Virus record (IMG/VR): IMGVR_UViG_3300045988_152568
Coordinates: 1 to 13,053 of that record
DNA: 13,053 nucleotides
Reading direction: 5' to 3' (one strand)
Source: a virus
This document shows, piece after piece, positions 1 to 13,053 of this stretch; within the stretch, counting starts at the first letter, position 1, and each line of letters opens with the position of its first letter. The notes beneath the pieces were generated by a model. The model was not told where the DNA came from. It did no database searches and saw nothing but the letters and a program-made list of their open reading frames with translations. Position numbers and translations under genes: made by a program.

Positions 1-105
1 AAATCTATCACAGAAGATGATGCTAAAAAAGCTCAAGAAGATATGACAATTCATGCAAATTCCCCAACTTGTCAGACAATTATACAAATTGTGTGAAAAT
101 TAGAA

Positions 106-132
106 ACAATTCTGACAATTCTGACAATTAAT
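106..132. repeat. 9-bp tandem repeat inside left ITR (ACAATTCTG x2 plus a degenerate third copy ACAATTAAT)
   Basis: The run acaattctg acaattctg acaattaat was read directly. The core heptamer GACAATT also occurs at 45-51 and 75-81, giving 4 copies per ITR. Confidence 0.8.
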
Positions 133-168
133 CAATCTGTCTGACTTTAACACTTTGTTATGAAACTG

Positions 169-197
169 TTGACTTTTATATGCAAAACTGGTACTAT
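169..197 (+). promoter_or_regulatory. Inward-facing early promoter in left ITR
   Basis: TTGACT (169-174), 17-nt spacer, TGg (189-191), TACTAT (192-197): near-consensus -35 plus an extended -10. It faces the first RBS/ATG at 231-247. The -10 hexamer ends on the last ITR base. Confidence 0.65.
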
Positions 198-244
198 TAG
201 GTTGCAACAATTAATACGGAACATTAAGTCAGGAGTGAATGAAT

Positions 245-379
245 ATGAAATACAATCAATACTACAATAGGAACACAATGAATATCGAACACCTTGCTAA
301 AGATCTTGAAAAGCAAGGCTATACCTGTAAATTATCCGAAGATGGAGATTATTTATGTGTATACCATCTCTGTTTTTAG
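245..379 (+). CDS. Small hypothetical protein (44 aa; 46 aa if started at ATG 239), not in the supplied ORF track
   Basis: AGGAG at 231-235, ATG at 245 (alternative ATG 239), TAG at 377-379. Translation: MKYNQYYNRNTMNIEHLAKDLEKQGYTCKLSEDGDYLCVYHLCF. It is the first ORF after the ITR promoter. It ends in a T5 run directly before the stop. Confidence 0.35.
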   Translation: MKYNQYYNRNTMNIEHLAKDLEKQGYTCKLSEDGDYLCVYHLCF

Positions 380-519
380 ATTATGTTGAAATATCCCTAA
401 CAGGATATAAGGACTGGTCTGTTACTTATTATAAGCCATTTAAAGAGATAACATTCTATAAAGCGGCTACAAACTGGTCAGTAATCAAGCTACTCAATAA
501 ACTCTTGGTAGAAGGATAA
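355..519 (+). CDS. Small hypothetical protein (54 aa), not in the supplied ORF track; possibly the -1 frame continuation of the preceding ORF
   Basis: GGAG at 344-347, ATG at 355, TAA at 517-519. Translation: MCIPSLFLDYVEISLTGYKDWSVTYYKPFKEITFYKAATNWSVIKLLNKLLVEG. It overlaps 245-379 by 25 nt. Confidence 0.35.
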   Translation: MCIPSLFLDYVEISLTGYKDWSVTYYKPFKEITFYKAATNWSVIKLLNKLLVEG

Positions 520-544
520 AAATTAGGAAAGGTGAGAACATACA

Positions 545-775
545 ATGAAAAGAAGTAAAAAACAAGTTAATGAATTTTATAAATACTACGCAAAGAAAAA
601 AGCGGATGCAGTCACAGAATTCATGGATTATAATGGACTATGGGGAGAGTTTAAAGTGTCCGGCTATAAGCGTCCAACAATGTTTCTGAAATGGGTAAAG
701 GGCATCGTAGTATACCCGGATGGTAGTTTTGAACAGTCTGATGATTGGATTGCATCAAGGTTCAGAAAGGAGTAG
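545..775 (+). CDS. Small basic early protein, function unknown (positional candidate for a DNA-binding replication accessory protein)
   Basis: 76-aa ORF with a GGAAAGGTGAG RBS region upstream and a lysine-rich N-terminus (MKRSKKQVNEFYKYYAKKKAD). It lies directly upstream of the TP/polymerase pair, where phi29 encodes small early proteins. The function is a guess from position only. Confidence 0.55.
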   Translation: MKRSKKQVNEFYKYYAKKKADAVTEFMDYNGLWGEFKVSGYKRPTMFLKWVKGIVVYPDGSFEQSDDWIASRFRKE

Positions 776-777
776 CA

Positions 778-1425
778 ATGGCTTTAAAGGGTACAGAAAG
801 AATAACAACCAAGTGGCAGGATATAAATCCATATAAAATCAATGAAAAAGAATTAGCCAGACTTTATACAAGTCTGGCTAAACGTCTAAATCAGCGCATG
901 GTTCGTTTAGAGAGAGCAGGATTTACTTCTGAATCCGGCGGTGCATACGCTAATTACAATGTAATTCTTAAAAAGTTCGGATATAACAAAAGAATAAGAG
1001 AAAAAATAAAGTTGGATTACAGCGATCGGAACGTCCTTTATATGCAGATTTCTTCTATGCGTAAGCAGGTACAAATGATGCAGAATGTCTTAAAAGCAAA
1101 AAGTTCTACGGTGCCAGGTTGGAAGTCGATCATAAAAAAGAGACGTGAGAAGCTGTCTGAATATGGACTTGAGTTTAAAGATACAAGTGAAATGAGTGCT
1201 TTTTTCCAGTCTTATGCTTTTGAACTTATAAGTCTTTTATACTCTTCTGAACAGGCTGTAGAATTCGTTGGTAAAGCCTTGCGTGATGGCGACACAATGA
1301 GTGAAATAATTAGCAAATTAGAGGAGTTTAGAGATCGTACGGACATAGACAGAGTGGATGATGTAGCAAAGTCACTAGGATTCTCTGGAGAAGCAGAAGC
1401 ATTAAAATATAAATACAAGGGGTAA
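778..1425 (+). CDS. Putative terminal protein (215 aa)
   Basis: ATG 778 is preceded by AAAGGAG (766-772). The track start at 745 is a TTG without an RBS. The gene lies immediately upstream of the protein-primed polymerase (stop 1425, pol ATG 1430), as gene 3/gene 2 do in phi29. It is charged, helical-looking and close in size to known TPs. The genome has ITRs. No motif proves the assignment. Confidence 0.5.
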   Translation: MALKGTERITTKWQDINPYKINEKELARLYTSLAKRLNQRMVRLERAGFTSESGGAYANYNVILKKFGYNKRIREKIKLDYSDRNVLYMQISSMRKQVQMMQNVLKAKSSTVPGWKSIIKKRREKLSEYGLEFKDTSEMSAFFQSYAFELISLLYSSEQAVEFVGKALRDGDTMSEIISKLEEFRDRTDIDRVDDVAKSLGFSGEAEALKYKYKG

Positions 1426-1429
1426 AAAA

Positions 1430-3556
1430 ATGGTTATAGCAGGATATCCAGTATTATCATATAAAGACTATGATTACATGCGTCTTTTTGACGGTAATTT
1501 CATTCGCAAAAGTAATGCAGGACACTTCCAGTCTTTTTATGAAAAAATAATAACGATTGATACTGAAACGTATGTTTCAGATACAGAAGATATAGGCTGG
1601 GTAACTGATTGGACTATAACTATAGAAAATGATTGCTGTTTGTACGGTAATCACGTACGTAATCTTATCAATACGATTGACCGGATCTGTGACACATTGC
1701 GTGCCGATAAAGAGCATACAGTACGATTTTATATCCATAATCTGTCATATGATTATATGTTTTTAAGGAATCATCTGCTAGAAAAGTTTGGAGTTCCTGA
1801 CCGTAAATTAGCTGTTAAAACTCACCGGTACGTATTTATGCAATGGCAGTCTTTTGGACTTGAAATAAGAGATTCTGCCATACTTACTCAACGTACTCTT
1901 GAACGTCTCTGTAAGGACATGGGGACACTTGAAAAAGCTACTGGTACATGGGACTATAAAAAGAAAAGAACTCCGGAATCTGGACGTACTGTAAAGGAAA
2001 TGACATACGTCTGCATTGATACGATTTGTCTTTGTAAAGCGTTACGACTTTATTTATCACAAAGAAACGTGAACGTAGCCACTGCCCCACTGACTAATAC
2101 AGGCTTTATCCGTAATCAAGCAAGATCACGTTCACGTAAGGACAAGAAATGGCATAAGAAATTTATGTCAATGCAACTCACGCTAGCTCAGTACGAGTTA
2201 CTCACAGCCTGCTATCACGGCGCCTATTCTCATGCGAGCAGATACTATGTCAATCAGTTAATTACTGAACCGGTGGAGTGCTACGATTTTATAAGTTCTT
2301 ATCCAGCTAGAATGGCGTATGAAAAGTTTCCTATGACAAACTTTGTAGAAACAAAGTTATCCTTACAAGATATAATGGATTTAAAAGAAAGTTATGCTTT
2401 TGCCGGCTATATCCGACTGAAAAAATTACGTTTGAAAAAAGATCACCCTATGCCACCGCTTGCTTTTCACAAAGCAAAAGTTTGTGTATTTCCAGATGCA
2501 GAGATTATAAGCAAAAAGAAAGCTATGGAATTGAACCTTGATAATGGCAAGATCGTAAACGCAGATCTTGTCATATATCCCTTTACGGATCCGGATTTGC
2601 AAGTCATTTTTGAAGCCTATGACTTTGAATGGGCTGACGTTTCAAACGTCATAAGAGCAAAGAAAGACTATCTTCCGGATTGGTTGATATCTTATATGAT
2701 TGAATTATTTGAGCATAAGAATACGCTGAAACATGCTGACCCTGTGTTATATATGATTTCAAAAGGCGAACTAAATGGAATCTACGGCATGATGGTTCAA
2801 AAGATGATACAATCCATGTTTGAAGAAGATTATGAAACTGGGCTATGGTCTGATGTTTTAAGTGAATCAGAATATGAAGAAAAGTTACAAAAGTATTACA
2901 GAAGTCGTAACAGTTTTTTACCATATCAATGGGGAGTATGGGTGACAGCCTATGCGCAGGCTGAGTTATTCGAACTTGGGAAGTGTTGCAAAAAATGGTA
3001 TTACTCAGACACCGATTCCGTTAAGGGTACAGACTGGGATAGAAAAAAACTTGCTGAGTATAATGATAAAGTAATGAAAAAATCTACAGAACGTGGACTT
3101 GGAACTGTAGTGTTTAATGGGGAATCACATACACTTGGTATTGCCGAGTTTGACGGCATTTACAATGAATTTAAAACAATGGGTAGTAAGCGTTACTGTT
3201 ACCGCGAAAAAGGAAAACTAAAACAGACTGTTGCAGGAGTGCCAAAAGACGGCGTTTATTGTCTTGATGATGACATAAATAATTTCGAAAAAGGTTTTAT
3301 CTATAGGAATAGTCTCACTTATCGCAGAAACTACCGTCGTGCGAACGACTGGAAAAAAGACCCAAGTTGGAAACTTAAAACGGAATATCTGTATAACAAA
3401 GGAATTAACAAAATAGTTGTTGATGGCTGTGATATAGAGTATGGTTGCGCAATCCGTTTATCCGATACAGAGTATGAGTTGGATCATACGATTCCGTATG
3501 ATAAGGAAACAGGGTTGCCGTTGCCATTTGAGACAAAAGAAGTTTTATATAGTTAA
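1430..3556 (+). CDS. Protein-primed family B DNA polymerase
   Basis: 708 aa. Exo I is ITIDTETY (D codon at 1559-1561), Exo II is YIHNLSYDYMF, Exo III is YVCIDTICL. Motif A is YDFISSYPA, motif B is SKGELNGIYG, motif C is YSDTDS (3002-3019), and the KxY motif is GSKRYCY. Long insertions between motifs A and B are consistent with TPR-type regions of protein-primed enzymes. Confidence 0.95.
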   Translation: MVIAGYPVLSYKDYDYMRLFDGNFIRKSNAGHFQSFYEKIITIDTETYVSDTEDIGWVTDWTITIENDCCLYGNHVRNLINTIDRICDTLRADKEHTVRFYIHNLSYDYMFLRNHLLEKFGVPDRKLAVKTHRYVFMQWQSFGLEIRDSAILTQRTLERLCKDMGTLEKATGTWDYKKKRTPESGRTVKEMTYVCIDTICLCKALRLYLSQRNVNVATAPLTNTGFIRNQARSRSRKDKKWHKKFMSMQLTLAQYELLTACYHGAYSHASRYYVNQLITEPVECYDFISSYPARMAYEKFPMTNFVETKLSLQDIMDLKESYAFAGYIRLKKLRLKKDHPMPPLAFHKAKVCVFPDAEIISKKKAMELNLDNGKIVNADLVIYPFTDPDLQVIFEAYDFEWADVSNVIRAKKDYLPDWLISYMIELFEHKNTLKHADPVLYMISKGELNGIYGMMVQKMIQSMFEEDYETGLWSDVLSESEYEEKLQKYYRSRNSFLPYQWGVWVTAYAQAELFELGKCCKKWYYSDTDSVKGTDWDRKKLAEYNDKVMKKSTERGLGTVVFNGESHTLGIAEFDGIYNEFKTMGSKRYCYREKGKLKQTVAGVPKDGVYCLDDDINNFEKGFIYRNSLTYRRNYRRANDWKKDPSWKLKTEYLYNKGINKIVVDGCDIEYGCAIRLSDTEYELDHTIPYDKETGLPLPFETKEVLYS

Positions 3557-3584
3557 AAAAGGGATGCAAATTTGCATCCCTTTT
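3557..3584. terminator. Bidirectional intrinsic terminator between the converging arms
   Basis: Perfect 28-bp palindrome aaaagggatgcaaa/tttgcatccctttt with a GC-containing core, flanked by an A-run upstream and a T-run downstream. This gives a U-tract on both strands. It begins 1 nt after the polymerase stop. Confidence 0.75.
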
Positions 3585-3606
3585 AAATGTTTCACGTGAA
3601 ACATTT
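3585..3606. promoter_or_regulatory. 22-bp perfect palindrome aaatgtttcacgtgaaacattt (copy 1 of a repeated 18-nt motif)
   Basis: Read directly. It overlaps the TAA stop (3605-3607) of the tail fibre gene. Its core ATGTTTCACGTGAAACAT recurs at 6486-6503 with one central change. Confidence 0.5.
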
Positions 3607-4849
3607 ACATTGTAATTGATCCTCTGTGAATTTGTACCTGTGTTACGGTTGTCAAGGTTCTGTAGTTGTGTTTGTCATCGCTAATATCATACAGAGCGAG
3701 ATAAATCTGTCTCGCTCTGAAATTAAGCTGAGCCGGAATGTGATAAAAATCAGATCCGGATTTTACAATCACAGTTGTTGGATAACATGTATAACCGTTT
3801 CCATCACCAACAAAGGAAGTTGAATAGATTCTTCCGATATAGTATTCTGTACCATTACAAATAAGTTCTCCGCTGTTTGGAAAACAAACATAATCGCCCC
3901 AGATGATATTGCTGGTGTTTTCTTTGTAATTTGTAACGATCACCCAACTACTTCCTGGAGCTGCTATAAAATCTCCTGCTTCAAAGTTTGAAGTTACATC
4001 ATAAAAGGATGGATGGCAAGAGCCGGTCTTTACTGCTTCCGCAAGGTAGCTAGCGAGTCGTTCTTGTCCGGTTGTGTTTGGGTGAAATCCGTCCGAGCCC
4101 ATGAATCCGTCAGCGTGTAAAATATATTCACTTCCATTAAGATAGGTCCATTTTTTCCGCTGTGTGTTATACACACTCTTTGCAATTTTGAACCTGTTCC
4201 ACTGGGTGCTGTCTACTGACCATGCAACCATTGCTACAAAAATTTTAGCATTCGGAAATCGTGTCTGTGCCACCCCATAAAAGGCATTGATTGCATTTTC
4301 AATTTCTGAATAAGTACCGAACTCATTGTAACCCCCTACAACTAAGATCTGCTTTACAGATGGATCAGCGTCAATCTGATTCAAAAGCATAAGGAATGAG
4401 TTGTTAGATGTTGAAAAAGAAGCACCACCATTGCTTTTGATAGTTACATTATCAATAGAGCAGTAATCCAAAAAGTGCTCTGTCCAAGGAGTTATGTTTC
4501 CATCCGGGGTATATCCTACTGTGTAGCTGTCACCGATAATGATAGTTCTGCCGCTTAAATCAAATAAACCGTCTCTTTTTTCAAGATCAGAAATCAGTTT
4601 ACCCTGTTCGGTTACTGTGCCTTTTAATGGTTCAATTTCATCCGTTAAGATTTTTTTCGTTGCAGCGTCAACTACTTTTCCAATCTCTCCGGAATCTAGT
4701 GAATCTTTAATTGCTTCGTCAATCTGCTTTTGTGCGGTTCCTTTTATGTCTGACCATTCTTTATGATCCTCTCCTGCCTGCTTTGCTACTTTTAATAAGT
4801 AGTCTAGGTTCATGTCCTGCATAGAACCGTGAGGATACGTATTAATCAT
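3605..4849 (-). CDS. Tail fibre / appendage protein with central SGNH (GDSL-type) esterase domain
   Basis: 414 aa, ATG 4849 with an AGGAAGGAGAG RBS. SGNH block I is IIIGDSYTVG (GDS at 4526-4534), block III is VVGGYNEF, block V is SDGFHPN (DxxH). There is an N-terminal coiled-coil-like segment and a beta-rich C-terminal part of about 130 aa. It is the last gene of the structural operon, after the collar. Confidence 0.7.
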   Translation of the reverse strand: MINTYPHGSMQDMNLDYLLKVAKQAGEDHKEWSDIKGTAQKQIDEAIKDSLDSGEIGKVVDAATKKILTDEIEPLKGTVTEQGKLISDLEKRDGLFDLSGRTIIIGDSYTVGYTPDGNITPWTEHFLDYCSIDNVTIKSNGGASFSTSNNSFLMLLNQIDADPSVKQILVVGGYNEFGTYSEIENAINAFYGVAQTRFPNAKIFVAMVAWSVDSTQWNRFKIAKSVYNTQRKKWTYLNGSEYILHADGFMGSDGFHPNTTGQERLASYLAEAVKTGSCHPSFYDVTSNFEAGDFIAAPGSSWVIVTNYKENTSNIIWGDYVCFPNSGELICNGTEYYIGRIYSTSFVGDGNGYTCYPTTVIVKSGSDFYHIPAQLNFRARQIYLALYDISDDKHNYRTLTTVTQVQIHRGSITM

Positions 4850-4867
4850 TATGTGCTCTCCTTCCTA

Positions 4868-5554
4868 TTAATAAACCAGAATCAGTAAGTCACTGGCAAA
4901 TAATCCTGTACAATAATCTATAAACGATTGCTTCCTTAATTGTAATTCGCTTTCTAACATTTGCTGAGACGTTGTCACACCTATGTTTCCGTGAATCTGC
5001 CCGGTATGGGTCGTAGTCCCTTTTTCTGTATTTTTTTCAGTTCGCCCATACTCAATGTCGTTTACATCTTGTCCGGAAGTTTCCATTTTTGTACTATTTC
5101 CATAAGTGGTTGTATCTTCCCTTGACGGCTGATAAGTGCTCGAATCAAAAGCACTCACTTTTTCTTCCATACTGTCAGTTCCTGTGTTTGACGTAACGGA
5201 TCCTCTGCCTGCTTGTAAGGTGTTTTTGTCCTTACCACCTGTTACAGTGTTTCGCTCAATGTTTGGAGAATCTGCCCAACTCTCCTGTCTGTCATAGTTC
5301 TCGATTGGATTGTACTCTTTTTTTAATGCAAGAAAGACCCTTTCAATGGAGTCCTGCCATTTTTTTGACCATGCCGGAATAGCTGACTGTTTCATAAAAT
5401 CGCCATTCGGATAGAGTGGTTCACAATCACCATAGGATAAAAGCAAGCTGTCAATAAAGTTCTGTTTGTCAGCATCTGCCGGAAAAGTCATCTTGTCGAA
5501 TAAGCTTTTATCATATTCATAAAGTCCGGCTATCGTAATTCTATACATCCCCAT
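4868..5554 (-). CDS. Lower collar / head-tail adaptor-like structural protein
   Basis: 228 aa directly downstream of the portal (14-nt overlap). It contains an EYNPIENYDR motif that I recall from collar/adaptor proteins of small Gram-positive podophages, and a Thr/Ser/Gly-rich central low-complexity region. Assignment is mostly by position (gp10 then gp11 order in phi29). Confidence 0.5.
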   Translation of the reverse strand: MGMYRITIAGLYEYDKSLFDKMTFPADADKQNFIDSLLLSYGDCEPLYPNGDFMKQSAIPAWSKKWQDSIERVFLALKKEYNPIENYDRQESWADSPNIERNTVTGGKDKNTLQAGRGSVTSNTGTDSMEEKVSAFDSSTYQPSREDTTTYGNSTKMETSGQDVNDIEYGRTEKNTEKGTTTHTGQIHGNIGVTTSQQMLESELQLRKQSFIDYCTGLFASDLLILVY

Positions 5555-6467
5555 TTGTTACACCTGCCTTTTTGTAGTCTCTGATCTTTATGTTTAGTTT
5601 CAAAGTTGGATAAAGACTGTTTGTCATGTCAACTCCTGTCTGCATGGTTTCTAGCCATGTAGTAAGTCGTGTCACAGATTCAATGTCGTTTTTTTCAGTT
5701 TCCATGACATTCAACCGCTCTTTTTTATCAGAACCGACAGACGGAATCCCAACTTCTGTATCAAACTGGTCAAGAAGCTTTTCAAACACTTCAATTAATT
5801 CTTTTGAAATGAAGTTGTTTTTCAAATCTTTGTTGAAAAATTCAAACGGTTCTGAACTTTTCCCCCTCATGTTTGTGTTCTCATTTTCTTTTATTGAAAC
5901 ATCATACGCAACTGCCGGGTTACCCTCCTGCACTTGGTCATAGACTTTTTCCAGTGTTTTAGCAGCGCTTTTGTTTTTGGCAGCTATCATAAAAGCTAAC
6001 TTGCTGTTGAATACGTTCATATCAAACGCAGAAGCTACCAGAGCCAATTTGTAACTATAATAACCGATAATGTCAAAAATTCCACATCTTGATGGACGTA
6101 AAAAGATCACGCTGCAATCTTTGCCAATCTTTAAATCCTGTAAGCTTATGATTGCATTGGTAGCATATGTGTTAATGCTTGCAAGCGTTGGCTTGCAATA
6201 CATATCATATCCACTGATCGCGGGATACTGAGCAATCATTCCATATGCATCAGTATATGTGATTGCAATAAATCCCCCACCTAGCAGGCAATACTTAAAA
6301 TAGTCAATGTCAAAATTTGCATTGTATGTTATATCAAATATAGAACACACTCTTTCATACAGCATACGATCAAACGTGTCAGTATATAGACTGTCTGCCT
6401 TGATTCCAGACGGTTGGAAGTAATTTGAAATGATATTGATTTTATCAAATCCAATCGGACACCACAT
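5541..6467 (-). CDS. Portal (upper collar / connector) protein, phi29 gp10-like
   Basis: 308 aa (phi29 gp10 is about 309 aa). The segments VYDQVQEGNPAVAYD and SDKKERLNVMETEKNDIESV resemble my recollection of the gp10 segments VYNQYEGNAPVIF and [21 protein letters not shown]. RBS is AGAGGTGA. Confidence 0.8.
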   Translation of the reverse strand: MWCPIGFDKINIISNYFQPSGIKADSLYTDTFDRMLYERVCSIFDITYNANFDIDYFKYCLLGGGFIAITYTDAYGMIAQYPAISGYDMYCKPTLASINTYATNAIISLQDLKIGKDCSVIFLRPSRCGIFDIIGYYSYKLALVASAFDMNVFNSKLAFMIAAKNKSAAKTLEKVYDQVQEGNPAVAYDVSIKENENTNMRGKSSEPFEFFNKDLKNNFISKELIEVFEKLLDQFDTEVGIPSVGSDKKERLNVMETEKNDIESVTRLTTWLETMQTGVDMTNSLYPTLKLNIKIRDYKKAGVTNGDV

Positions 6468-6485
6468 GATTTTTCACCTCTTTCT

Positions 6486-6503
6486 ATGTTTCATGTGAAA
6501 CAT
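6486..6503. promoter_or_regulatory. 18-nt palindromic motif atgtttcatgtgaaacat (copy 2)
   Basis: It lies in the 35-nt gap between tail knob and portal genes and overlaps the tail-knob TAA (6503-6505). It differs from 3587-3604 at one central base. No U-tract follows on the - strand. Confidence 0.5.
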
Positions 6504-7858
6504 TATTCATAATAAAATCCGCTATTCAAGTAGTTATTCACTGCTTCTTGATCTCCGGTAAACCCACTAATTTCTATGGATGCATTTCTGCATCTGAGAT
6601 AACCGTAACACGTTGAAATCTTGCGACTGTTTCCATCTGCATATCCCTCACCTGTACCGTTTGGCTCTGTGCTCATTCTTGTATAGCATATTACGGATGC
6701 GTCAAGATTATTGAGGATTCCACCAACCGAGCCAATAGAACCAATACTTGTGACTTCCGGTGATAAAATGGATTGCGTAGTGTTAAGTACACCGGAAGAT
6801 ACACCGAGTGCATTTCCTGTCATAGCTGACGAGACGGTTGAAAGTCCACCAATTAATGCGTCACCAATGTTGACATTTGCACCTGCTATGTTTACCGGTA
6901 CTGTCATCTGACATTGATAGTGTCCTATTACAGATGATCCAGATTTCAACCAAACATCTGAAATTCCGGAATAGGCGTCAAAGTAGTAGTCTGCTATTAA
7001 CTGTCCATTATTCGTTTTTGTTATGTCAACCGGAATAACTCCAATGCAAGGAAGTTGTACAAAGTAACGACTAAAATTACCATTGTAAAAACGAAAATCT
7101 GTATTAGAATAAAGTGGATTAGTCAGTTCAAGATTATAGGAAAAATGAACCACCGGACTATTTGAAGCACCACCAATCAATAAAGCTTGTACACCGGAAC
7201 GCCAATAGCCTAGATTTACATCATTCATTATTGATAAAAAATTACTTGAGCGAAAGGGTAGCCATTTTAAATCAATAATGTATTTTGCAGGATCGAAAAG
7301 AAACTTTGTAGTTGCGTTCTCAATCAGTTCTTGGAAGTTATCAGCCGTATACATGAAACTCACAATCAAACCTAACTGTTTTTCCGTAACATAGTAAGTT
7401 TCAACCCCTGCCGCACCTACGACACGCATGATATAGTTACCGGCGTATCCATTAACAAATACATTGAGAGGCCGTGCAACGATAGTGTCCTGCTTCTGCC
7501 AGTCCTCAGTGGGTAAATAAAGCGGATCATCAAGCAAAGGGTCTTGATGATTTGATCGCTCAATAAAGCATGTATATTCGCCTATTTCATTTTTATAAGT
7601 TGCCAAGATGTCCTCAGTACAAGTTATTTCCGTCTGTCCTGCGTTGATTGACGTAGTTGAATCAATGAAATAATAGTGATCAGCCCATTTGCAATAGTTA
7701 AACTGTAGCATATCGTTCATTGGTCTTTGCAAAATAAACGTAGGACTTTGAAATGTAGTTGTAATTTTTAAAAGGCAGGGGACTTCTGTCCCCTGCCTTG
7801 TAGGACGTTTTGTGCTGTTTTTTCTTTTCGAAAAATGATACAAAACTATTTCTGTCAT
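6503..7858 (-). CDS. Tail knob / distal tail tube protein, phi29 gp9-like
   Basis: 451 aa from ATG 7858, which overlaps the endolysin TGA as ATGA. The longer track ORF to 7921 starts at a non-ATG codon inside the endolysin gene. The N-terminal pattern NYCKWADHYYFIDSTTSINAGQTEITCTEDILATY resembles the gp9-type pattern (aromatic-rich, then N..T.I.FE.D.LQT). There is a C-proximal Gly/Ser/Ala-rich hydrophobic stretch. Confidence 0.55.
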   Translation of the reverse strand: MTEIVLYHFSKRKNSTKRPTRQGTEVPCLLKITTTFQSPTFILQRPMNDMLQFNYCKWADHYYFIDSTTSINAGQTEITCTEDILATYKNEIGEYTCFIERSNHQDPLLDDPLYLPTEDWQKQDTIVARPLNVFVNGYAGNYIMRVVGAAGVETYYVTEKQLGLIVSFMYTADNFQELIENATTKFLFDPAKYIIDLKWLPFRSSNFLSIMNDVNLGYWRSGVQALLIGGASNSPVVHFSYNLELTNPLYSNTDFRFYNGNFSRYFVQLPCIGVIPVDITKTNNGQLIADYYFDAYSGISDVWLKSGSSVIGHYQCQMTVPVNIAGANVNIGDALIGGLSTVSSAMTGNALGVSSGVLNTTQSILSPEVTSIGSIGSVGGILNNLDASVICYTRMSTEPNGTGEGYADGNSRKISTCYGYLRCRNASIEISGFTGDQEAVNNYLNSGFYYE

Positions 7859-8502
7859 GATAAGTAAATCTCCCCCTTTGAAGTAATGGCACAGATCCAA
7901 CCGGATGGAATACGAACCCATAAAGCACCGGATTCATCCTGTTTCATGTCTTTGACCGTAACTTCTGTTCCTTTTTTCAAGCATCCATCGGAATAAGCAT
8001 GTTTCATAGCATCCATTGTCAGCTGTGAGTATTCTTTGATCTGACCCCAAACGCAAAATCGAACATGTAAATGATCAACCTGTGTACGGTAAGTCCGTCC
8101 TACTACGTATGATGGACTTGAATCCCATACCCTGCGGACACAGACAAGATCATGCCGGCGAGTTACAGGAGAGATCACAACTCCTGTGCCTGGATTATCT
8201 GCCGTGTTTTTACGACTGCCCCGGCTTTCAATCATTTTTCCATATCCAATGTAAATGGCACAATGAGTAACAGGAGATCCGAAGAATAAGAAATCACCGG
8301 GCTTCTGCTGACCAACCGGAATTCTAACACCCATGTTTGAATAAGTTGCCGCGTTATATCGTCCAACCTCTGAGCCAGCTGTCCTCTGGATCCAGTAAAT
8401 CAATCCGGAACAGTCAAGACCCTGTGCAGGGGTTGAGCCACCCCACACATAAGGAGTACCAATTAAATTATGAGCATATACTACAAGTTCATTTGCTGTC
8501 AT
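7855..8502 (-). CDS. Endolysin: NlpC/P60 endopeptidase plus C-terminal SH3-like wall-binding domain
   Basis: 215 aa from ATG 8502, with a TAGGTG RBS overlapping the holin stop (the track start at 8520 is TTG). NlpC/P60 signatures are PYVWGG, GLDCSGL (catalytic Cys) and THCAIYIG (His). The C-terminal part of about 70 aa (GTEVTVKD...GALWVRIPSGWI) looks SH3b-like. Confidence 0.85.
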   Translation of the reverse strand: MTANELVVYAHNLIGTPYVWGGSTPAQGLDCSGLIYWIQRTAGSEVGRYNAATYSNMGVRIPVGQQKPGDFLFFGSPVTHCAIYIGYGKMIESRGSRKNTADNPGTGVVISPVTRRHDLVCVRRVWDSSPSYVVGRTYRTQVDHLHVRFCVWGQIKEYSQLTMDAMKHAYSDGCLKKGTEVTVKDMKQDESGALWVRIPSGWICAITSKGEIYLS

Positions 8503-8509
8503 ATAGCAC

Positions 8510-8734
8510 CTACTTTCCAATTTGTTCGATTAATGTGTTCATTTTTTCCAGAGCGATCGTGTTATTTTTGATTACTTCTGAAAGCGTGTCAACTTCGTTT
8601 TTGTGTTCTTCGTTGAGTTTATCAACTCTTGCATTCGTCTGGTCGTACATGTATTTGACAAAGTATGCCATGCCAATACAACAAACGATAGGGAATGCAT
8701 AGTTTCCCAAAACTGTTAAAATTGTGTCTGTCAT
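8510..8734 (-). CDS. Holin (BhlA/UviB-like architecture)
   Basis: 74 aa with a single N-terminal hydrophobic helix (ILTVLGNYAFPIVCCIGMAYFV) followed by a charged coiled C-terminus. It lies immediately upstream of the endolysin. RBS is AAGGAGA. Confidence 0.65.
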   Translation of the reverse strand: MTDTILTVLGNYAFPIVCCIGMAYFVKYMYDQTNARVDKLNEEHKNEVDTLSEVIKNNTIALEKMNTLIEQIGK

Positions 8735-8741
8735 GTTTTTA

Positions 8742-9059
8742 TTATCTCCTTATAAAATAATCCTGATTATAGGGCGATAGAGGTACATTGTCAATCATGA
8801 TTACTACTGTTGCCACTACTTTCGGATTATTATTTACTAATTTGAACGTACTAGCGTTTGGATAACCATTATAGGATTCAAATTTCAATTCATAAATTGT
8901 ACTAACTGAATTTGTTGAAAAAAGTTCATAATCACCATAAAACAATGTAACATCTTCATTTTTTGTAGTTATTACAAGCCGTCTTACTCCGATGGATTCA
9001 AAGGGAAAATTTACTACGATCGAACCGCCAGCCGGTACATTTTGTCTTGAATAAAACAT
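8742..9059 (-). CDS. Hypothetical beta-rich protein after the capsid gene (possible head decoration/fibre or other virion protein)
   Basis: 105-aa ORF whose ATG overlaps the capsid gene stop as TAATG (9057-9061). It sits where phi29 encodes the head fibre. No recognisable motif. Confidence 0.55.
   Translation of the reverse strand: MFYSRQNVPAGGSIVVNFPFESIGVRRLVITTKNEDVTLFYGDYELFSTNSVSTIYELKFESYNGYPNASTFKLVNNNPKVVATVVIMIDNVPLSPYNQDYFIRR
8766..8794 (-). promoter_or_regulatory. Perfect-consensus sigma-A promoter upstream of the holin gene
   Basis: The - strand reads TTGACA (8794-8789), a 17-nt spacer atgtacctctatcgccc, then TATAAT (8771-8766). It is embedded in the 3' end of the 105-aa ORF, about 32 nt upstream of the holin ATG. 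Confidence 0.65.
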
Positions 9060-10258
9060 TATGCTCCCCCCTCTCCAATCACATAAAGGATTCCGTTATG
9101 AGTGAAATTATTCCAGTAGTTTTTTCTGGAATGAACGTACATGTTATAGTAGCCACCCCGGCTATTGAAAGGAGTGGTAGAACTGTAGTCAAACTGCCAG
9201 TTGACACCCATTGCACGACGATCATAGAGAACACCAAGGACATAAGGTAAGTTTACCTCTGTTTTTGCCTTTTTTGCCTCACCATTCTCTCCAATGATGG
9301 ATGGTGTAATCTGGATTGCTGATTCGTTATCGGCGGACTGCCACCAATTGACAAGTTCTTTGTTCTCGATCTGTAAATTTTTATCATCAAACACATACGG
9401 TAACGTCTGAGTTTCTGAGTTGATCCAGAAGCTCGACAGCATCATAAGTCGCTGATTTTCTTTTCTTGTGAATCTCAAAAGTTTTTCAAACCCTGTAATC
9501 GTAAATCTGTACTTAGTTGATCTCTCTGTCAGTTTTTCAGAATCAAGCTTGATTCGAGCAACCACGAACGGCATAAACTTGTCACGGTGTTCAGAAAGCA
9601 ACTGTTTTCTTGTATACTGTGTTCCATTCTCTGTGTTGAACTCATGTGCAAGGTCAACTTCCATACCAAGAGCTGATAAACCTGCCATATAGTTGAGCAT
9701 GGTTGCACGACGTTCACTCTCACGATCCGTCTCAATGTCATTGCGAAACTCAATCATAACTGCTTCGTAAAATCTGAGGAATTCCCCCTCACTCGAAAAA
9801 GCAGTTGCCAGCTGGTCACGAAACCGTGTGATTGATCTCTGTAAAAGCTTTGTGCCGTAGAACTTGAGTTCAAGCACTTTCGGCTTATGAATCTTGTACA
9901 TGTCGATAGATTTACCATCATCCAATGTGTTCGGATTCTGCTCTGTATTCCAATCATCAGACTGTTCAGCGTCCATTGACAGGGACGTAATTTCGCGAAC
10001 GATACCCCCCCATCGAACATTTGTCTGCTCAACGGTCTTTAATTTACCGGTATAAGATTCATTTGAAAAATAAGTATATGCAAATACTGTGCTGATTGCA
10101 TTCAGTGTGTTTTCTACTCCTGTACGTAACAGTGTTTCCCCTACGGAAACAAAAGAGCTTGTGTCAGTCGCTACAAGATTAGAACGTCCGGTAGCCTGTT
10201 TAGCAACGGAATTGATAAGTGTATAGGCATCCTGCGGGGTTAAACTATTTACTGCCAA
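9059..10258 (-). CDS. Major capsid protein (phi29 gp8-like, HK97-fold family expected)
   Basis: 399 aa directly after the scaffold-like gene. The C-terminal NSRGGYYNMYVH resembles my recollection of the gp8 segment NPRGLYWNYYYH. It starts at TTG 10258 with an AAGGAAGTG RBS 7 nt upstream; an in-frame TGA lies 2 codons upstream and the next in-frame ATG is about 95 codons downstream. Confidence 0.75.
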   Translation of the reverse strand: MAVNSLTPQDAYTLINSVAKQATGRSNLVATDTSSFVSVGETLLRTGVENTLNAISTVFAYTYFSNESYTGKLKTVEQTNVRWGGIVREITSLSMDAEQSDDWNTEQNPNTLDDGKSIDMYKIHKPKVLELKFYGTKLLQRSITRFRDQLATAFSSEGEFLRFYEAVMIEFRNDIETDRESERRATMLNYMAGLSALGMEVDLAHEFNTENGTQYTRKQLLSEHRDKFMPFVVARIKLDSEKLTERSTKYRFTITGFEKLLRFTRKENQRLMMLSSFWINSETQTLPYVFDDKNLQIENKELVNWWQSADNESAIQITPSIIGENGEAKKAKTEVNLPYVLGVLYDRRAMGVNWQFDYSSTTPFNSRGGYYNMYVHSRKNYWNNFTHNGILYVIGEGGA

Positions 10259-10275
10259 TTTAATTCACTTCCTTT

Positions 10276-10611
<336 letters not shown>

Positions 10612-10640
10612 TTTTGTTTTTTTTCTCCTTTCTATTGAGA

Positions 10641-10756
10641 AAAAAACGGATGTTAAGGGAAATATGAAGGAAATAAAAAAAAATTAAGGGAAAACTTGCG
10701 GGTAATCATCCCTATAGCATCCGTTTCCGACGGTTGATGTAGCTGTTTTCCCTTAA
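10641..10756 (-). ncRNA. Candidate structured small RNA or terminator-containing leader between the ATPase and scaffold genes
   Basis: The 155-bp gap has no ORF. On the - strand, UUAAGGGAAAAC (10756-10745) pairs perfectly with GUUUUCCCUUAA (10695-10684) and is followed by U9 (10683-10675). AAACGGAUG (10726-10718) pairs perfectly with CAUCCGUUU (10652-10644) inside a U7 run (10646-10640). A second UUUCCCUUAA lies at 10662-10653. The two stems are interleaved. The promoter at 10761-10789 would start transcription at about 10754. Confidence 0.4.
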
Positions 10757-10760
10757 AATA

Positions 10761-10789
10761 TATATATCACAAATTGAAAATTTTATCAA
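10761..10789 (-). promoter_or_regulatory. Near-consensus extended -10 promoter at the 3' end of the ATPase gene
   Basis: The - strand reads TTGATA (10789-10784), 17-nt spacer ending in TGa (the TGA stop of the ATPase gene), then TATATA (10766-10761). There is an AT-rich upstream tract. Confidence 0.55.
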
Positions 10790-11822
10790 TATAAAATTTT
10801 ACGGTTAGGTTTTGATATGATATTCTACTACTAATAATATAGTTATATATCCATGAATAATAGTATTTAAACTGTGATTTTCCCAACTCACTGTCAGGAA
10901 AAATATCTTTACACGTTCCGGAAATATGATCGCTTATGTAAAGTTTAACTTCTTTTTTGTGTTCGTAAACTCCAATAGCCCCAATTACACAAATCAACCG
11001 GTAGTTTCTCAAATCTTCTGACTTTATAGAACTCGTATCATCATATGCAAAGTCATTGTCAAGAGACATTTTTTCAAAATCTGTACTTCCGGTAAGAGCC
11101 TTATAAAGTGCTGTCTTTCTTTTCTTTTCTGAAATGGGGCTTTTATTAATCAAAATAATGATTATTCCACGGTCTTTTAACATGGAAAACTCCTGTCCGG
11201 ACTTCTTCATTTTTTCCAAGTTCGGAAGCAATCCGAAAGACTGAATAAGCGGGGAATCAAGTGTGTTACTATTTGAAACGATCCACCAACGAAAAGGTTT
11301 TTGACCAAATAACTCACGGTTGGCAGAAATTGTTTCCACTCCGTTTAAAAAAGCATCCTCTTCTCCTTTGATTCTTTTGTCAAGCTTCTCCGGGATAAAC
11401 TCGTCATAGATTCCTTCCGAAAAACCGGATCCAGAGAATCCCCTATTATTCATCAGACTAGTAAGACTAAATGCTTCTCCATGATAAACTTCCTCTCCTG
11501 CTTCATTGATCTCTTGCAAGGATACCCGGCTTTTTTCACCCTTTACCTTTTTGAAAAAGAAATTTCTGTGAAGATCGTGATTTATGTCAATCCACGGATT
11601 CATTGTATCAATCAGAACGGAATCTATTTGAGTAGTTTTTCGTCTCATATAGATTACTTTTTCATTTTTTGAAAAAACATCTTCAATGAAATGTTTAAAG
11701 ATTCCATAGGTTTTTCCGGTGCGACGAGCACCTATAATAAAGATAAAATTTATTTCATTTTTTTCACAGGTATTCACGATTTTTGGGATATTCAGCCATC
11801 CATCTTTTTCGTATATATTCAT
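10767..11822 (-). CDS. DNA encapsidation (packaging) ATPase, phi29 gp16-like
   Basis: 351 aa (gp16 is about 332 aa). The N-terminal FIIGARRTGKTY...VIYMRR closely mirrors my recollection of the gp16 pattern VIGARGIGKSY...FIYVRR, a Walker A with the characteristic Arg. Walker B-like motif is GIYDEFIPE. RBS is AAAGGAG. Confidence 0.9.
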   Translation of the reverse strand: MNIYEKDGWLNIPKIVNTCEKNEINFIFIIGARRTGKTYGIFKHFIEDVFSKNEKVIYMRRKTTQIDSVLIDTMNPWIDINHDLHRNFFFKKVKGEKSRVSLQEINEAGEEVYHGEAFSLTSLMNNRGFSGSGFSEGIYDEFIPEKLDKRIKGEEDAFLNGVETISANRELFGQKPFRWWIVSNSNTLDSPLIQSFGLLPNLEKMKKSGQEFSMLKDRGIIIILINKSPISEKKRKTALYKALTGSTDFEKMSLDNDFAYDDTSSIKSEDLRNYRLICVIGAIGVYEHKKEVKLYISDHISGTCKDIFPDSELGKSQFKYYYSWIYNYIISSRISYQNLTVKFYIDKIFNL

Positions 11823-11838
11823 TGATACTCCTTTACTG

Positions 11839-11866
11839 AAAAAAGGTGTACTAAATAGTACACCTT
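11839..11866 (-). terminator. Intrinsic terminator after the SpoVG-like gene
   Basis: The - strand reads AAGGUGUACUA-UU-UAGUACACCUU followed by a U-run (CCUUUUUUC). It lies between the stop at 11874 and the ATPase RBS. On the + strand a T-run also follows, so it may act in both directions. Confidence 0.65.
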
Positions 11867-11873
11867 ATATTTT

Positions 11874-12170
11874 TTATGAAAACTGCTGTTTGTTTGAGCT
11901 GCCAGAATCCTTGCAGACTTCATTGTATTTTTTAATACAAGCTTTTTCTAACTGACTTGTAAACTCTTTATCCATTGAGTAGACTGAATCATGATAATCA
12001 CCGTCTTTACTTTTGGATGACGGAAACGAAAGGAATAATTTGTTTGAATACTCTACAAGTCTCAACCCCCTTATTACAAGCGTTTCGTCAAGACATAAAC
12101 TAATAAAAGCCTTTGTTTTACTGTTGCCATCATAAGGATAGCAATTGATTTTGATAGATGATTTTAACAT
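11874..12170 (-). CDS. spoVG: SpoVG-family nucleic-acid-binding protein homologue
   Basis: 98 aa. The segment DGNSKTKAFISLCLDETLVIRGLRLVEYSNKLFLSFPSSKSKDGDYHDSVYSM aligns by eye with my recollection of the Bacillus SpoVG core [51 protein letters not shown]. Shared positions are DG, KA, S, LD, V, R, LF, PS, K, DG, D. RBS is AAAAGGAG. Confidence 0.75.
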   Translation of the reverse strand: MLKSSIKINCYPYDGNSKTKAFISLCLDETLVIRGLRLVEYSNKLFLSFPSSKSKDGDYHDSVYSMDKEFTSQLEKACIKKYNEVCKDSGSSNKQQFS

Positions 12171-12184
12171 GATATTTTCTCCTT

Positions 12185-12364
12185 TTATTTACATAATCTT
12201 CTTGTTGGTTCAACCAGTTTCCAATTTGATGGTGCTGTCTCTTTTATAAAAATACAGCAATCATCACTATCAATGAGTGGGCATCCCTCGCATGTATTGT
12301 CTTTTGACGCACAATAATCTTTTATAGTAAGTAATGCATCATATAATTCATAAATTGATTTCAT
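12185..12364 (-). CDS. Small Cys-rich hypothetical protein (59 aa), not in the supplied ORF track
   Basis: ATG 12364 overlaps the upstream TGA as ATGA, and the TAA stop is at 12185-12187. Translation: MKSIYELYDALLTIKDYCASKDNTCEGCPLIDSDDCCIFIKETAPSNWKLVEPTRRLCK. It has six Cys, including CxxC and CC. It fills the otherwise empty gap between two genes and ends just before the SpoVG RBS. Confidence 0.5.
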   Translation of the reverse strand: MKSIYELYDALLTIKDYCASKDNTCEGCPLIDSDDCCIFIKETAPSNWKLVEPTRRLCK

Positions 12365-12813
12365 TTTTTCAAACTCACCTCACATTCTACTAATAAATTA
12401 TATTCACTTGGGGCTGTGAGTAACTGCGTGACGTCATAAACATACGAGTCATTTTTTCTTAACAATGTATAAACTTCTGACAGATATTCTACATCTACGG
12501 CTCTTTTGCATAAAACACCGTTTATGTACAGATCAAAACGTCTTGAACATATCATACTAGATATTTCAGAAAAAGTAATATGTTTATGAATAGGGGTTTC
12601 CGTATCTTTATAAAACACACCAATTGTATCATTTATGCAATCAGATAATGTTGGAACTTTATTAATAAAAATAAGCTCACCCGGATAAACGTACTCTTCT
12701 TTATCTTCATCAACAAAAGTTGATTCATAAGTGGCAATATGTACAGTAAACATATTGCTTGCGTCACCTTTTCTTTCTCTTAATTTGATTCTACAAGATT
12801 TTAATTTAAACAT
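12361..12813 (-). CDS. Hypothetical early protein (150 aa)
   Basis: ATG 12813 has a strong AAGGAGAG RBS. It is the first gene downstream of the right ITR promoter. No recognisable motif. Confidence 0.7.
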   Translation of the reverse strand: MFKLKSCRIKLRERKGDASNMFTVHIATYESTFVDEDKEEYVYPGELIFINKVPTLSDCINDTIGVFYKDTETPIHKHITFSEISSMICSRRFDLYINGVLCKRAVDVEYLSEVYTLLRKNDSYVYDVTQLLTAPSEYNLLVECEVSLKK

Positions 12814-12856
12814 TTTTTCTCTCCTTTACATATTTGCTATTTATTTGTTCAAGATC

Positions 12857-12885
12857 ATAGTACCAGTTTTGCATATAAAAGTCAA
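12857..12885 (-). promoter_or_regulatory. Inward-facing early promoter in right ITR (identical copy)
   Basis: Same TTGACT-N17-TGgTACTAT read on the - strand (-35 at 12885-12880, -10 at 12862-12857). It lies about 45 nt upstream of the ATG at 12813, which has an AAGGAGAG RBS. Confidence 0.65.
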
Positions 12886-12921
12886 CAGTTTCATAACAAA
12901 GTGTTAAAGTCAGACAGATTG

Positions 12922-12948
12922 ATTAATTGTCAGAATTGTCAGAATTGT
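12922..12948. repeat. Mirror copy of the 9-bp tandem repeat inside the right ITR
   Basis: Reverse complement of 106-132, because the ITRs are identical. Confidence 0.8.
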
Positions 12949-13053
12949 TTCTAATTTTCACACAATTTGTATAATTGTCTGACAAGTTGGGGAATTTGCA
13001 TGAATTGTCATATCTTCTTGAGCTTTTTTAGCATCATCTTCTGTGATAGATTT

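Follow-up and report, generated by a model that had tools for sequence, protein, structure and literature searches.

A conserved three-way-junction RNA ahead of the late operon in small phi29-like phages and its possible kinship with prohead RNA

Introduction

To our knowledge, no RNA other than prohead RNA (pRNA), as found in phage phi29, is known to form part of a viral DNA-packaging motor. The long A helix of this RNA carries the packaging ATPase, and the basic N-terminus of the phi29 connector is a segment implicated in pRNA binding. Within the group, the structure is retained despite poor conservation of the junction sequence, and an Infernal-based hunt in 2025 returned new members only from Bacillus phages (PMC12670572), in line with the view that pRNA occurs in no phages but phi29 and its Bacillus relatives (PMC11476376); the literature searched in this work contained no report of a pRNA outside Bacillus phages. 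The pRNA features used for comparison below are those described in PMC12670572 and PMC4201828. The present analysis concerns a stretch of 13,053 nucleotides (nt) of viral DNA (IMG/VR virus record IMGVR_UViG_3300045988_152568, positions 1 to 13,053; hereafter the window), which represents a complete phi29-like podophage genome of about 13 kb, and, within it, a 73-nt RNA element encoded on the minus strand between the genes for the packaging ATPase and a scaffold-like protein. The structure of this element, its distribution, its promoter and its neighbours are described here, and the evidence is weighed for the reading that it is a new miniature, trans-acting RNA of the pRNA type, for which the chances are judged to be about even.

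Results and Discussion

Fold of the element in the window

The RNA (minus strand, 10756-10684) folds into a three-way junction whose parts are listed in Table 1. Its closing helix, P1, is formed by two perfectly paired 12-nt arms and continues without any unpaired nucleotide into a short C helix; the 47 nt inside the arms are not a single loop and comprise a 3-base-pair (bp) helix (AGC/GCU), an 8-nt bulge and two hairpins, E and D. The 86-nt core folds at -22.2 kcal/mol (z = -3.1 against shuffles), and the whole gap in which it lies gives z = -2.85; these z-scores are weaker evidence than the conservation with covariation found in relatives.

An earlier note, made from the letters of this DNA, had pointed to the features from which the element was recognized: a promoter TTGATA-N17-TATATA at 10789-10761; a 12-nt arm (10756-10745) that pairs with 10695-10684 and is followed by U9; a second perfect pairing of 9 bp (10726-10718 with 10652-10644) followed by a U-run; the decamer TTAAGGGAAA at 10653-10662, at 10684-10693 and, inverted, at 10747-10756; the motif GGAUG, twice; and the only sizeable non-coding gap outside the inverted terminal repeats (ITRs). 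All of them are present, the U-run being U7 (10646-10640) and the gap, of 155 nt (10612-10766), being longer than any other non-coding stretch apart from the 216-nt ITRs. The placement of the 5' arm of the second stem within the loop of the first holds as far as the pairings go; the region inside the first stem is, however, built of two further helices instead of one large loop. Likewise, the three decamer copies exist, but they are not independent boxes, since two of them are the arms of P1.

This last point bears on a further proposal of the note, namely that the decamers are operators placed around the start of transcription. Three copies of TTAAGGGAAA within 105 bp would suit binding sites of a DNA-binding regulator; against this, other clades carry unrelated but complementary arms in place of the two copies that form P1 (GGUCAACG/CGUUGACC, GGCAGGA/UCCUGCC and AAUCCCCGG/CCGGGGAUU), and the third copy is limited to the nearest relatives and shows no covariation with the others. 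With arms that change freely by compensatory substitution and a third box specific to one lineage, the operator reading is extremely improbable and is rejected.

Distribution, conservation and covariation

When the ATPase was used as a query, 80 IMG/VR contigs were retrieved, falling into three tiers of identity (91-96%, 65-68% and ~40%), and the element directly follows the ATPase stop codon in all contigs of the first two tiers. Of the cells in an alignment of 61 distinct sequences, 97% are paired, compared with 30-44% in slid controls, and 14 pairs have changed on both sides; across 71 distinct sequences from four lineages, the corresponding values are 88%, 32-45% and 21 pairs. Compensatory changes occur in all helices: both sides have changed in 11 of the 12 P1 pairs across relatives, and the three pairs of the C helix appear as AU/GC/GU, GC/CG/AU and CG/GC/AU. 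The check for covariation across relatives proposed in the earlier note thus gave support for the first stem and the inner helices, while the second stem proved to be lineage-specific.

A covariance model (R1) was used to search further clades. It matched the ~40% ATPase tier at 51-60 bits and, with filters off, MT836263 (28 bits) and its 180-member clade at 28-35 bits, a clade that was missed entirely with default filters; six more clades, sampled via ATPase homologues of 36-40% identity, were matched at 20-35 bits (filters off). The three-way-junction fold is common to all clades matched by R1, and within the MT836263 clade P1 alone runs through the compensatory series CCCCGG, CCCAGG, CCUCGG, CCUUGG and CUCAGG. 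The loop of the E hairpin conforms to NNGAA (CGGAA, CAGAA, UGGAA, UCGAA) in all examined clades except L259. The same layout was recognized, by inspection and folding, in the cultured Amedibacillus phage AD70P2. A DNA pattern scan of viral contigs recovered mostly known loci and added four, and the ATPase of L016, used as a query, returned only L016 itself. In total, the element is spread over ~14 clades of 12-14 kb phi29-like phages, with a length of 62-81 nt.

G-U pairs are frequent in these alignments, as exemplified by the innermost P1 pair (columns 19-72), which is UG in 42 sequences. Because of these many G-U pairs, the transcribed strand must be the gene strand, and an RNA on the opposite strand is ruled out. 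That the RNA structure is real, conserved, specific to the transcribed strand and equipped with its own promoter is very well supported.

Complementarity between the bulge and the D loop

In the window, the bulge carries AUCA and the D loop UGAU, and the two kissing pairs covary among the 71 sequences: pair 26-62 is A-U in 62 and G-C in 9, and pair 27-61 is U-A in 58 and C-G in 13. The complementarity is retained in every clade despite different sequences, the bulge and D-loop partners being AUCA/UGAU, AACCA/UGGUU, AGCCA/UGGCU, GGC/GCC, UCC/GGA, CGC/GCG, GUCA/UGAC, GACAA/UUGUC, CUC/GAG and UGC/GCA. The summed duplex length of the cognate partners is 47, compared with 28.8 +/- 2.5 for permuted partners, and 0 of 100,000 permutations reach 47, in a test that was not fully blind, given that loop boundaries were taken from the minimum free energy folds.

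Promoter and 3' end

The promoter of the element overlaps the end of the ATPase gene, and the TG that precedes its -10 box (10769-10768) comes from the stop codon of that gene, TGA (10769-10767). A sigma-A-type -35/-10 pair is found in 132 of 134 distinct upstream regions of relatives; in these, the -35 box is TTGACA, TTGACT, TTGATA, TTGATT or, once, TTGAAA, the -10 box is TAnnn(T/A), the spacer measures 17 nt in 121 regions and 18 nt in 11, and the -10 box ends 5-7 nt ahead of P1, so that transcription should begin at the first paired bases. The same geometry is displayed by the A1 promoter that precedes phi29 pRNA (TTGACA-17-TATAAT, 7 nt, then +1). Neither this promoter nor the terminator was listed by a generic promoter and terminator scan, the rules of which demand a loop of <= 8 nt and specific hexamers. 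The tail that follows P1 is T-rich in every clade, and its strength ranges from U9 in the window and U8 in L101 to UACUUGUAUCUG in the MT836263 clade.

A start at the first paired base, as predicted in all clades, the T-rich tail after P1 and the location between two transcription units would also suit a purely structural element, in which the paired 5' terminus would shield the capsid mRNA from 5' exonuclease, as a Firmicute-type 5' stabiliser, and the 3' end would terminate the upstream ATPase transcript. For these tasks a simple hairpin would suffice, and the conserved three-way junction, the near-invariant NNGAA loop of the E hairpin and the complementarity of bulge and D loop in at least 10 sequence pairs would be left unexplained; this explanation is accordingly considered improbable.

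Comparison with phi29 prohead RNA

The resemblance to phi29 pRNA extends from the genome to the details of the fold. Both RNAs belong to phi29-type genomes with a protein-primed PolB, ITRs, a gp16-type ATPase and a gp10-type connector; both have their 5' and 3' ends paired in a closing (A) helix, followed by a three-way junction in the order A, C, 5'-strand bulge, E hairpin and D hairpin; in both, the bulge can pair with the D loop through 3-5 bases, which covary between phages; and both have their own -35/-10 promoter, with the end of the -10 box ~7 nt before the first helix base. As in pRNAs, the structure is kept in the element while the primary sequence varies, the junction sequence being poorly conserved across clades. 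The C helix is shorter in the element (3-5 bp) than in phi29 pRNA (~10 bp), and the gene heads a capsid operon into which transcription reads through, whereas that of phi29 stands alone near the genome end. In phi29 pRNA, the pairing of bulge and D loop joins separate molecules into an oligomeric ring, and the RNA is prohead-bound and needed for packaging; in the small RNA, these properties are putative.

The element is absent from Rfam 15. A scan of the window with this collection at E <= 10 gave only three chance-level matches, all elsewhere in the window, and an identity as a hammerhead, riboswitch or tRNA-like RNA is without Rfam support.

A larger RNA in Clostridium phages

An unannotated RNA of ~112 nt, located between the PolB and packaging ATPase genes, was found in the Clostridium phages CI55P1 and CI130P1 and in 13 IMG/VR relatives (Table 1). 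It is flanked by a promoter, TTTACA-17-TACAAT, and by a U-tract, and comprises an A helix of ~22 bp, a C helix of ~10 bp, a three-way junction, an ACCA bulge and the D hairpin GCA-CUGGUAA-UGC, in the loop of which UGGU is complementary to the bulge; 9 of its 40 pairs show compensatory change. The C/bulge/E segment GGUUGGG-AUACCA-CAGG of CI55P1 resembles GUUGGGG-AUUAAACC-CUGA of phi29. Neither a pRNA match nor any other meaningful one was obtained in the CI55P1 gap with Rfam, RF00044 included, at E <= 10. The ~112-nt RNA looks like a phi29-sized pRNA outside Bacillus phages and provides a bridge between phi29 pRNA and the small RNA.

With the small RNA it shares the order promoter, RNA, U-tract and late genes, a D hairpin of 3 bp whose 7-nt loop has UGGU as its bases 2-5 (compare GGG-AUGGUAA-CCC in L101), and ACCA in the bulge, as in L016 and L101. 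It differs in being longer and of phi29-pRNA size, in lying upstream of the ATPase gene and not of the scaffold gene, and in the connector encoded by its genome, the N-terminus of which is basic as in phi29.

Genomic neighbourhood and the alternative of a cis-acting leader

The constant neighbour of the element is the head of the late (scaffold/capsid) operon and not the ATPase gene. In two clades (the 40% clade and L258) the ATPase gene lies on the other genome arm, and the unit of promoter and RNA still stands directly before the scaffold and capsid genes. The possibility that the copy of the 40% clade is a portable RNA gene at the genome end, like that of phi29 pRNA, is ruled out, since the scaffold and capsid genes follow this copy immediately and it is the ATPase gene alone that has moved. 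What follows the RNA is not the scaffold gene in every clade. In the MT836263 clade (L178-L257, with ATPases >= 96% identical), either of two unrelated small open reading frames (ORFs; MDANT... or MNVYA...) comes directly after the RNA, which indicates cassette exchange.

These arrangements raise the possibility that the element is a cis-acting 5' leader of the late operon, whose pseudoknotted junction would regulate read-through at the terminator of P1 and U-tract, or translation or stability downstream, in response to a bound phage or host factor; the factor might be a SpoVG-like protein or, in feedback as in P22, the scaffold protein, and the contact of bulge and loop would then be an intramolecular tertiary one. 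This explanation is regarded as clearly the less probable, though as a serious one. Autoregulation by the P22 scaffold provides a functional analogy for such feedback, and SpoVG proteins are known to bind nucleic acids. A SpoVG homologue is encoded beside the ATPase gene here (65 bits), and the same holds for several other carrier clades; overall, SpoVG-like ORFs are present in several to many of these clades, not in all, and their products are possible partners or regulators of the RNA. The element is always the first transcribed segment before the late genes, even where the ATPase gene has moved to the other arm; the matched heights of the C and D helices fit an intramolecular contact; and the U-tracts are weak in many clades, so that the RNA would stay on the mRNA.

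Further support for a leader comes from the spacer ahead of the Shine-Dalgarno (SD) sequence: in 6 of 16 clade representatives, a segment of 7-9 nt just ahead of the SD could pair with the interior of the element (shuffle P 0.004-0.02 in each case), and L016 (CCCGUGAC/GUCACGGG) and L101 (CCGUGGC/GCCACGG) differ in it by a compensatory change. The targets vary: in the window, CAUCCGUUU faces AAACGGAUG; in the 67% clade (L017), CUUCCGGC faces GCCGGAAG in the E loop; in L016, L101 and L261, the segment faces the 3' strand of C together with the 5' strand of D; and in L258, it faces the 3' strand of C together with the end of the 3' strand of E. The complementarity is beyond chance, yet it is neither universal nor directed at a constant target.

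The element resembles bacterial and phage 5' leaders, whether riboswitch-like or protein-binding, in its place at the 5' end of an operon, in a structure with a tertiary contact, a U-tract and an SD, and in a spacer that can pair with the element in some clades; it differs from them in having no conserved ligand-pocket sequence, antiterminator, anti-SD or match to a curated family. No conserved expression platform is found, 10 of the 16 clade representatives being without an alternative pairing; the spacer to the SD ranges from ~8 to ~60 nt, and the complementary segment hits different parts of the element depending on the clade; the junction and bulge sequences are poorly conserved, unlike those of ligand-binding leaders; the first downstream gene varies between and within clades; and the Rfam 15 scan of the window matched no cis-regulatory family. 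Besides, if the element were a leader, its detailed match to the pRNA topology within phi29-type genomes would be a coincidence.

A proposed miniature trans-acting RNA

A trans-acting role as a miniature pRNA-type RNA is the most likely interpretation because the order of helices, the covarying pairing of bulge and D loop and the promoter geometry match phi29 prohead RNA and because genes for a gp16 ATPase and a gp10-like connector are present. According to this interpretation, transcription from the host sigma-A-type promoter TTGATA-17-TGaTATATA would start at the first bases of the 12-bp closing helix; the 73-nt RNA (10756-10684) folds into the three-way junction, and AUCA in the bulge would pair with UGAU in the D loop of another molecule; the closing helix and U9 would end part of the transcripts and release a discrete RNA, while the remainder would read through to the scaffold and capsid genes; and the RNA, made alongside capsid components, would act in trans on proheads or on the packaging motor, where it may bind and be needed for packaging.

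Several observations weigh against this interpretation. No match to the pRNA family RF00044, the Infernal search for which had been put forward in the earlier note, was obtained in the window at E <= 10, and at the gathering score only the phi29 control matched among 8 loci (145 bits). The RNA measures 73 nt here and 62-81 nt in relatives, as against a 120-nt core and a full length of 174 nt in phi29; its A helix is perfectly paired and has 12 bp here and 6-14 bp in relatives, as against ~25 bp with bulges; and its junction has 4 unpaired nt from D to A and none from A to C. By A-form geometry, a pentameric ring of such monomers would probably be too small to encircle a phi29-sized connector. 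The connector encoded in the window starts with MWCPIGFDKINIIS and is not basic there, unlike those of phi29 (MARKRSNTYR...) and CI55P1 (MSSKRRKIKA...); lysines and arginines among the first 25 connector residues number 1-3 in carriers of the small RNA, as against 8 in phi29 and 6 in CI55P1. With C and D helices that are short and about equally high, the contact of bulge and loop could be an intramolecular pseudoknot. The element is always at the 5' end of the late operon. Finally, the terminator is strong in the window (12 bp and U9) and weak in many clades, in which most transcripts must therefore run on into downstream genes; where the U-tract is weak, as in the MT836263 clade, the RNA would stay joined to the mRNA unless processed.

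Of the two readings that the earlier note had set beside that of operators, a discrete structured RNA like phi29 pRNA is the better supported, having gained a covarying fold, its own promoter and a pRNA architecture, with the qualification that what stays constant beside it is the start of the scaffold/capsid operon and not the ATPase gene. From the other, tandem terminators that gate the late genes, it can be retained that the RNA is the first segment transcribed from the late-operon promoter; the second terminator is confined to the closest relatives, many clades have a weak U-tract behind the first stem, and no conserved antiterminator was found.

Taking the small and the larger RNA together, a broader proposal can be advanced, with somewhat less than even confidence: RNA-dependent DNA packaging may not be confined to phi29-type phages of Bacillus and may be widespread in the 12-15 kb phi29-like phages of gut Firmicutes, either with a phi29-sized pRNA (CI55P1 type) or with a mini-pRNA of 62-81 nt (the window, AD70P2 and ~14 clades), the latter being expressed from the late-operon promoter and oligomerising through covarying bulge/D-loop pairs on a portal vertex without a basic connector N-terminus.

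Genome context of the window

The late block lies on the minus strand and includes the genes for the packaging ATPase, the scaffold-like protein, the major capsid protein and the connector. In a tblastn comparison, the ATPase is 25.7% identical to the product of phi29 gene 16 across 80% of its length, and PDB 7JQQ, which it matches at E = 1e-8, is the structure of phi29 gp16. The genome is bounded by ITRs of 216 nt (1-216 and 12838-13053) that are 97% identical; they contain tandem TGACAAT/TCTGACAAT motifs and, at each end, an outward-in promoter TTGACT-17-TACTAT with TG. The sole close phage record in GenBank is an unannotated human-faecal contig, and no tRNA or tmRNA was found in the window.

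Just upstream of the ATPase gene lies the gene for the SpoVG homologue (98 amino acids, PF04026, 65 bits; 11874-12170, minus strand), and between the two a perfect 10-bp hairpin (11843-11866) with T-runs on both strands resembles a bidirectional terminator. The scaffold-like protein (10276-10611, minus strand) contains an unbroken run of 21 QN dipeptides; low-complexity spacers of other kinds are found in relatives (EPEP... in L154, for example), and the tract varies in length. A perfect consensus promoter, TTGACA-17-TATAAT (8766-8794, minus strand), is located inside the ORF 8742-9059, faces a downstream ORF of 74 amino acids and an NlpC/P60 gene, and may be an internal promoter of the late region.

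Table 1. Positions of the RNA element, its signals and neighbouring genes in the window, and of the ~112-nt RNA in other phages
Feature	Position	Strand	Remarks
-35 box TTGATA	10784-10789	-	inside last codons of ATPase gene
-10 box TATATA	10761-10766	-	17-nt spacer from -35; predicted start ~10757-10753
P1 closing helix (A-helix-like), 5' arm UUAAGGGAAAAC	10745-10756	-	perfect pairing with 10684-10695
C helix, 5' strand AGC	10742-10744	-	partner GCU 10716-10718
8-nt 5' bulge UACAUCAA (CE-loop-like)	10734-10741	-	AUCA (10738-10735) complementary to D loop
E hairpin CCGU-CGGAA-ACGG	10721-10733	-	100% paired, 2 covarying pairs
Internal-loop 3' side (AU) and C helix 3' strand GCU	10716-10720	-	
D hairpin GGG-AUGAUUA-CCC	10700-10712	-	loop UGAU (10708-10705) pairs with bulge AUCA
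Junction strand GCAA, helix D to P1	10696-10699	-	A-rich in all clades
P1 3' arm GUUUUCCCUUAA	10684-10695	-	pairs with 10745-10756
U9 tract	10675-10683	-	with P1, intrinsic-terminator-like 3' end; predicted RNA ~72-82 nt
P1 3'-arm decamer, second copy UUUCCCUUAA	10653-10662	-	lineage-specific: only L002-L006 and L133
CAUCCGUUU, complementary to AAACGGAUG (10726-10718, E hairpin 3' half)	10644-10652	-	perfect 9 bp; shuffle P = 0.005; then U7 10646-10640
Shine-Dalgarno GAAAGGAG of scaffold-like gene	10632-10625	-	
Scaffold-like gene, first late gene after RNA	10276-10611	-	start codon 10611-10609
Major capsid protein	9059-10258	-	
Connector, gp10-like	5541-6467	-	phrog_2038, PDB 7PV2
Packaging ATPase, phi29 gp16 homologue, putative partner of RNA	10767-11822	-	PF05894 (Podovirus_Gp16), phrog_2150, PDB 7JQQ E = 1e-8
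Protein-primed-type PolB	1430-3556	+	
~112-nt RNA, L175 (CI55P1, OP172759)	4764-4873	+	
~112-nt RNA, L176	about 9990-10105	-	
~112-nt RNA, L264-L276			

Implications

If the RNA does act as a miniature pRNA, the pRNA architecture would exist at ~60% of its core size (73 versus 120 nt) in very abundant phages of the human gut; this would show how far a pRNA can shrink, would help to test whether pRNA was already present in the ancestor of the phi29-like lineage, and would offer RNA nanotechnology a three-way junction that is natural, minimal and self-pairing. If it is a cis-acting leader instead, it would still represent an undescribed and widespread regulatory RNA before phage capsid operons. 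The cultured carriers AD70P2 (Amedibacillus, small RNA) and CI55P1 (Clostridium, ~112-nt RNA) make the question directly testable.

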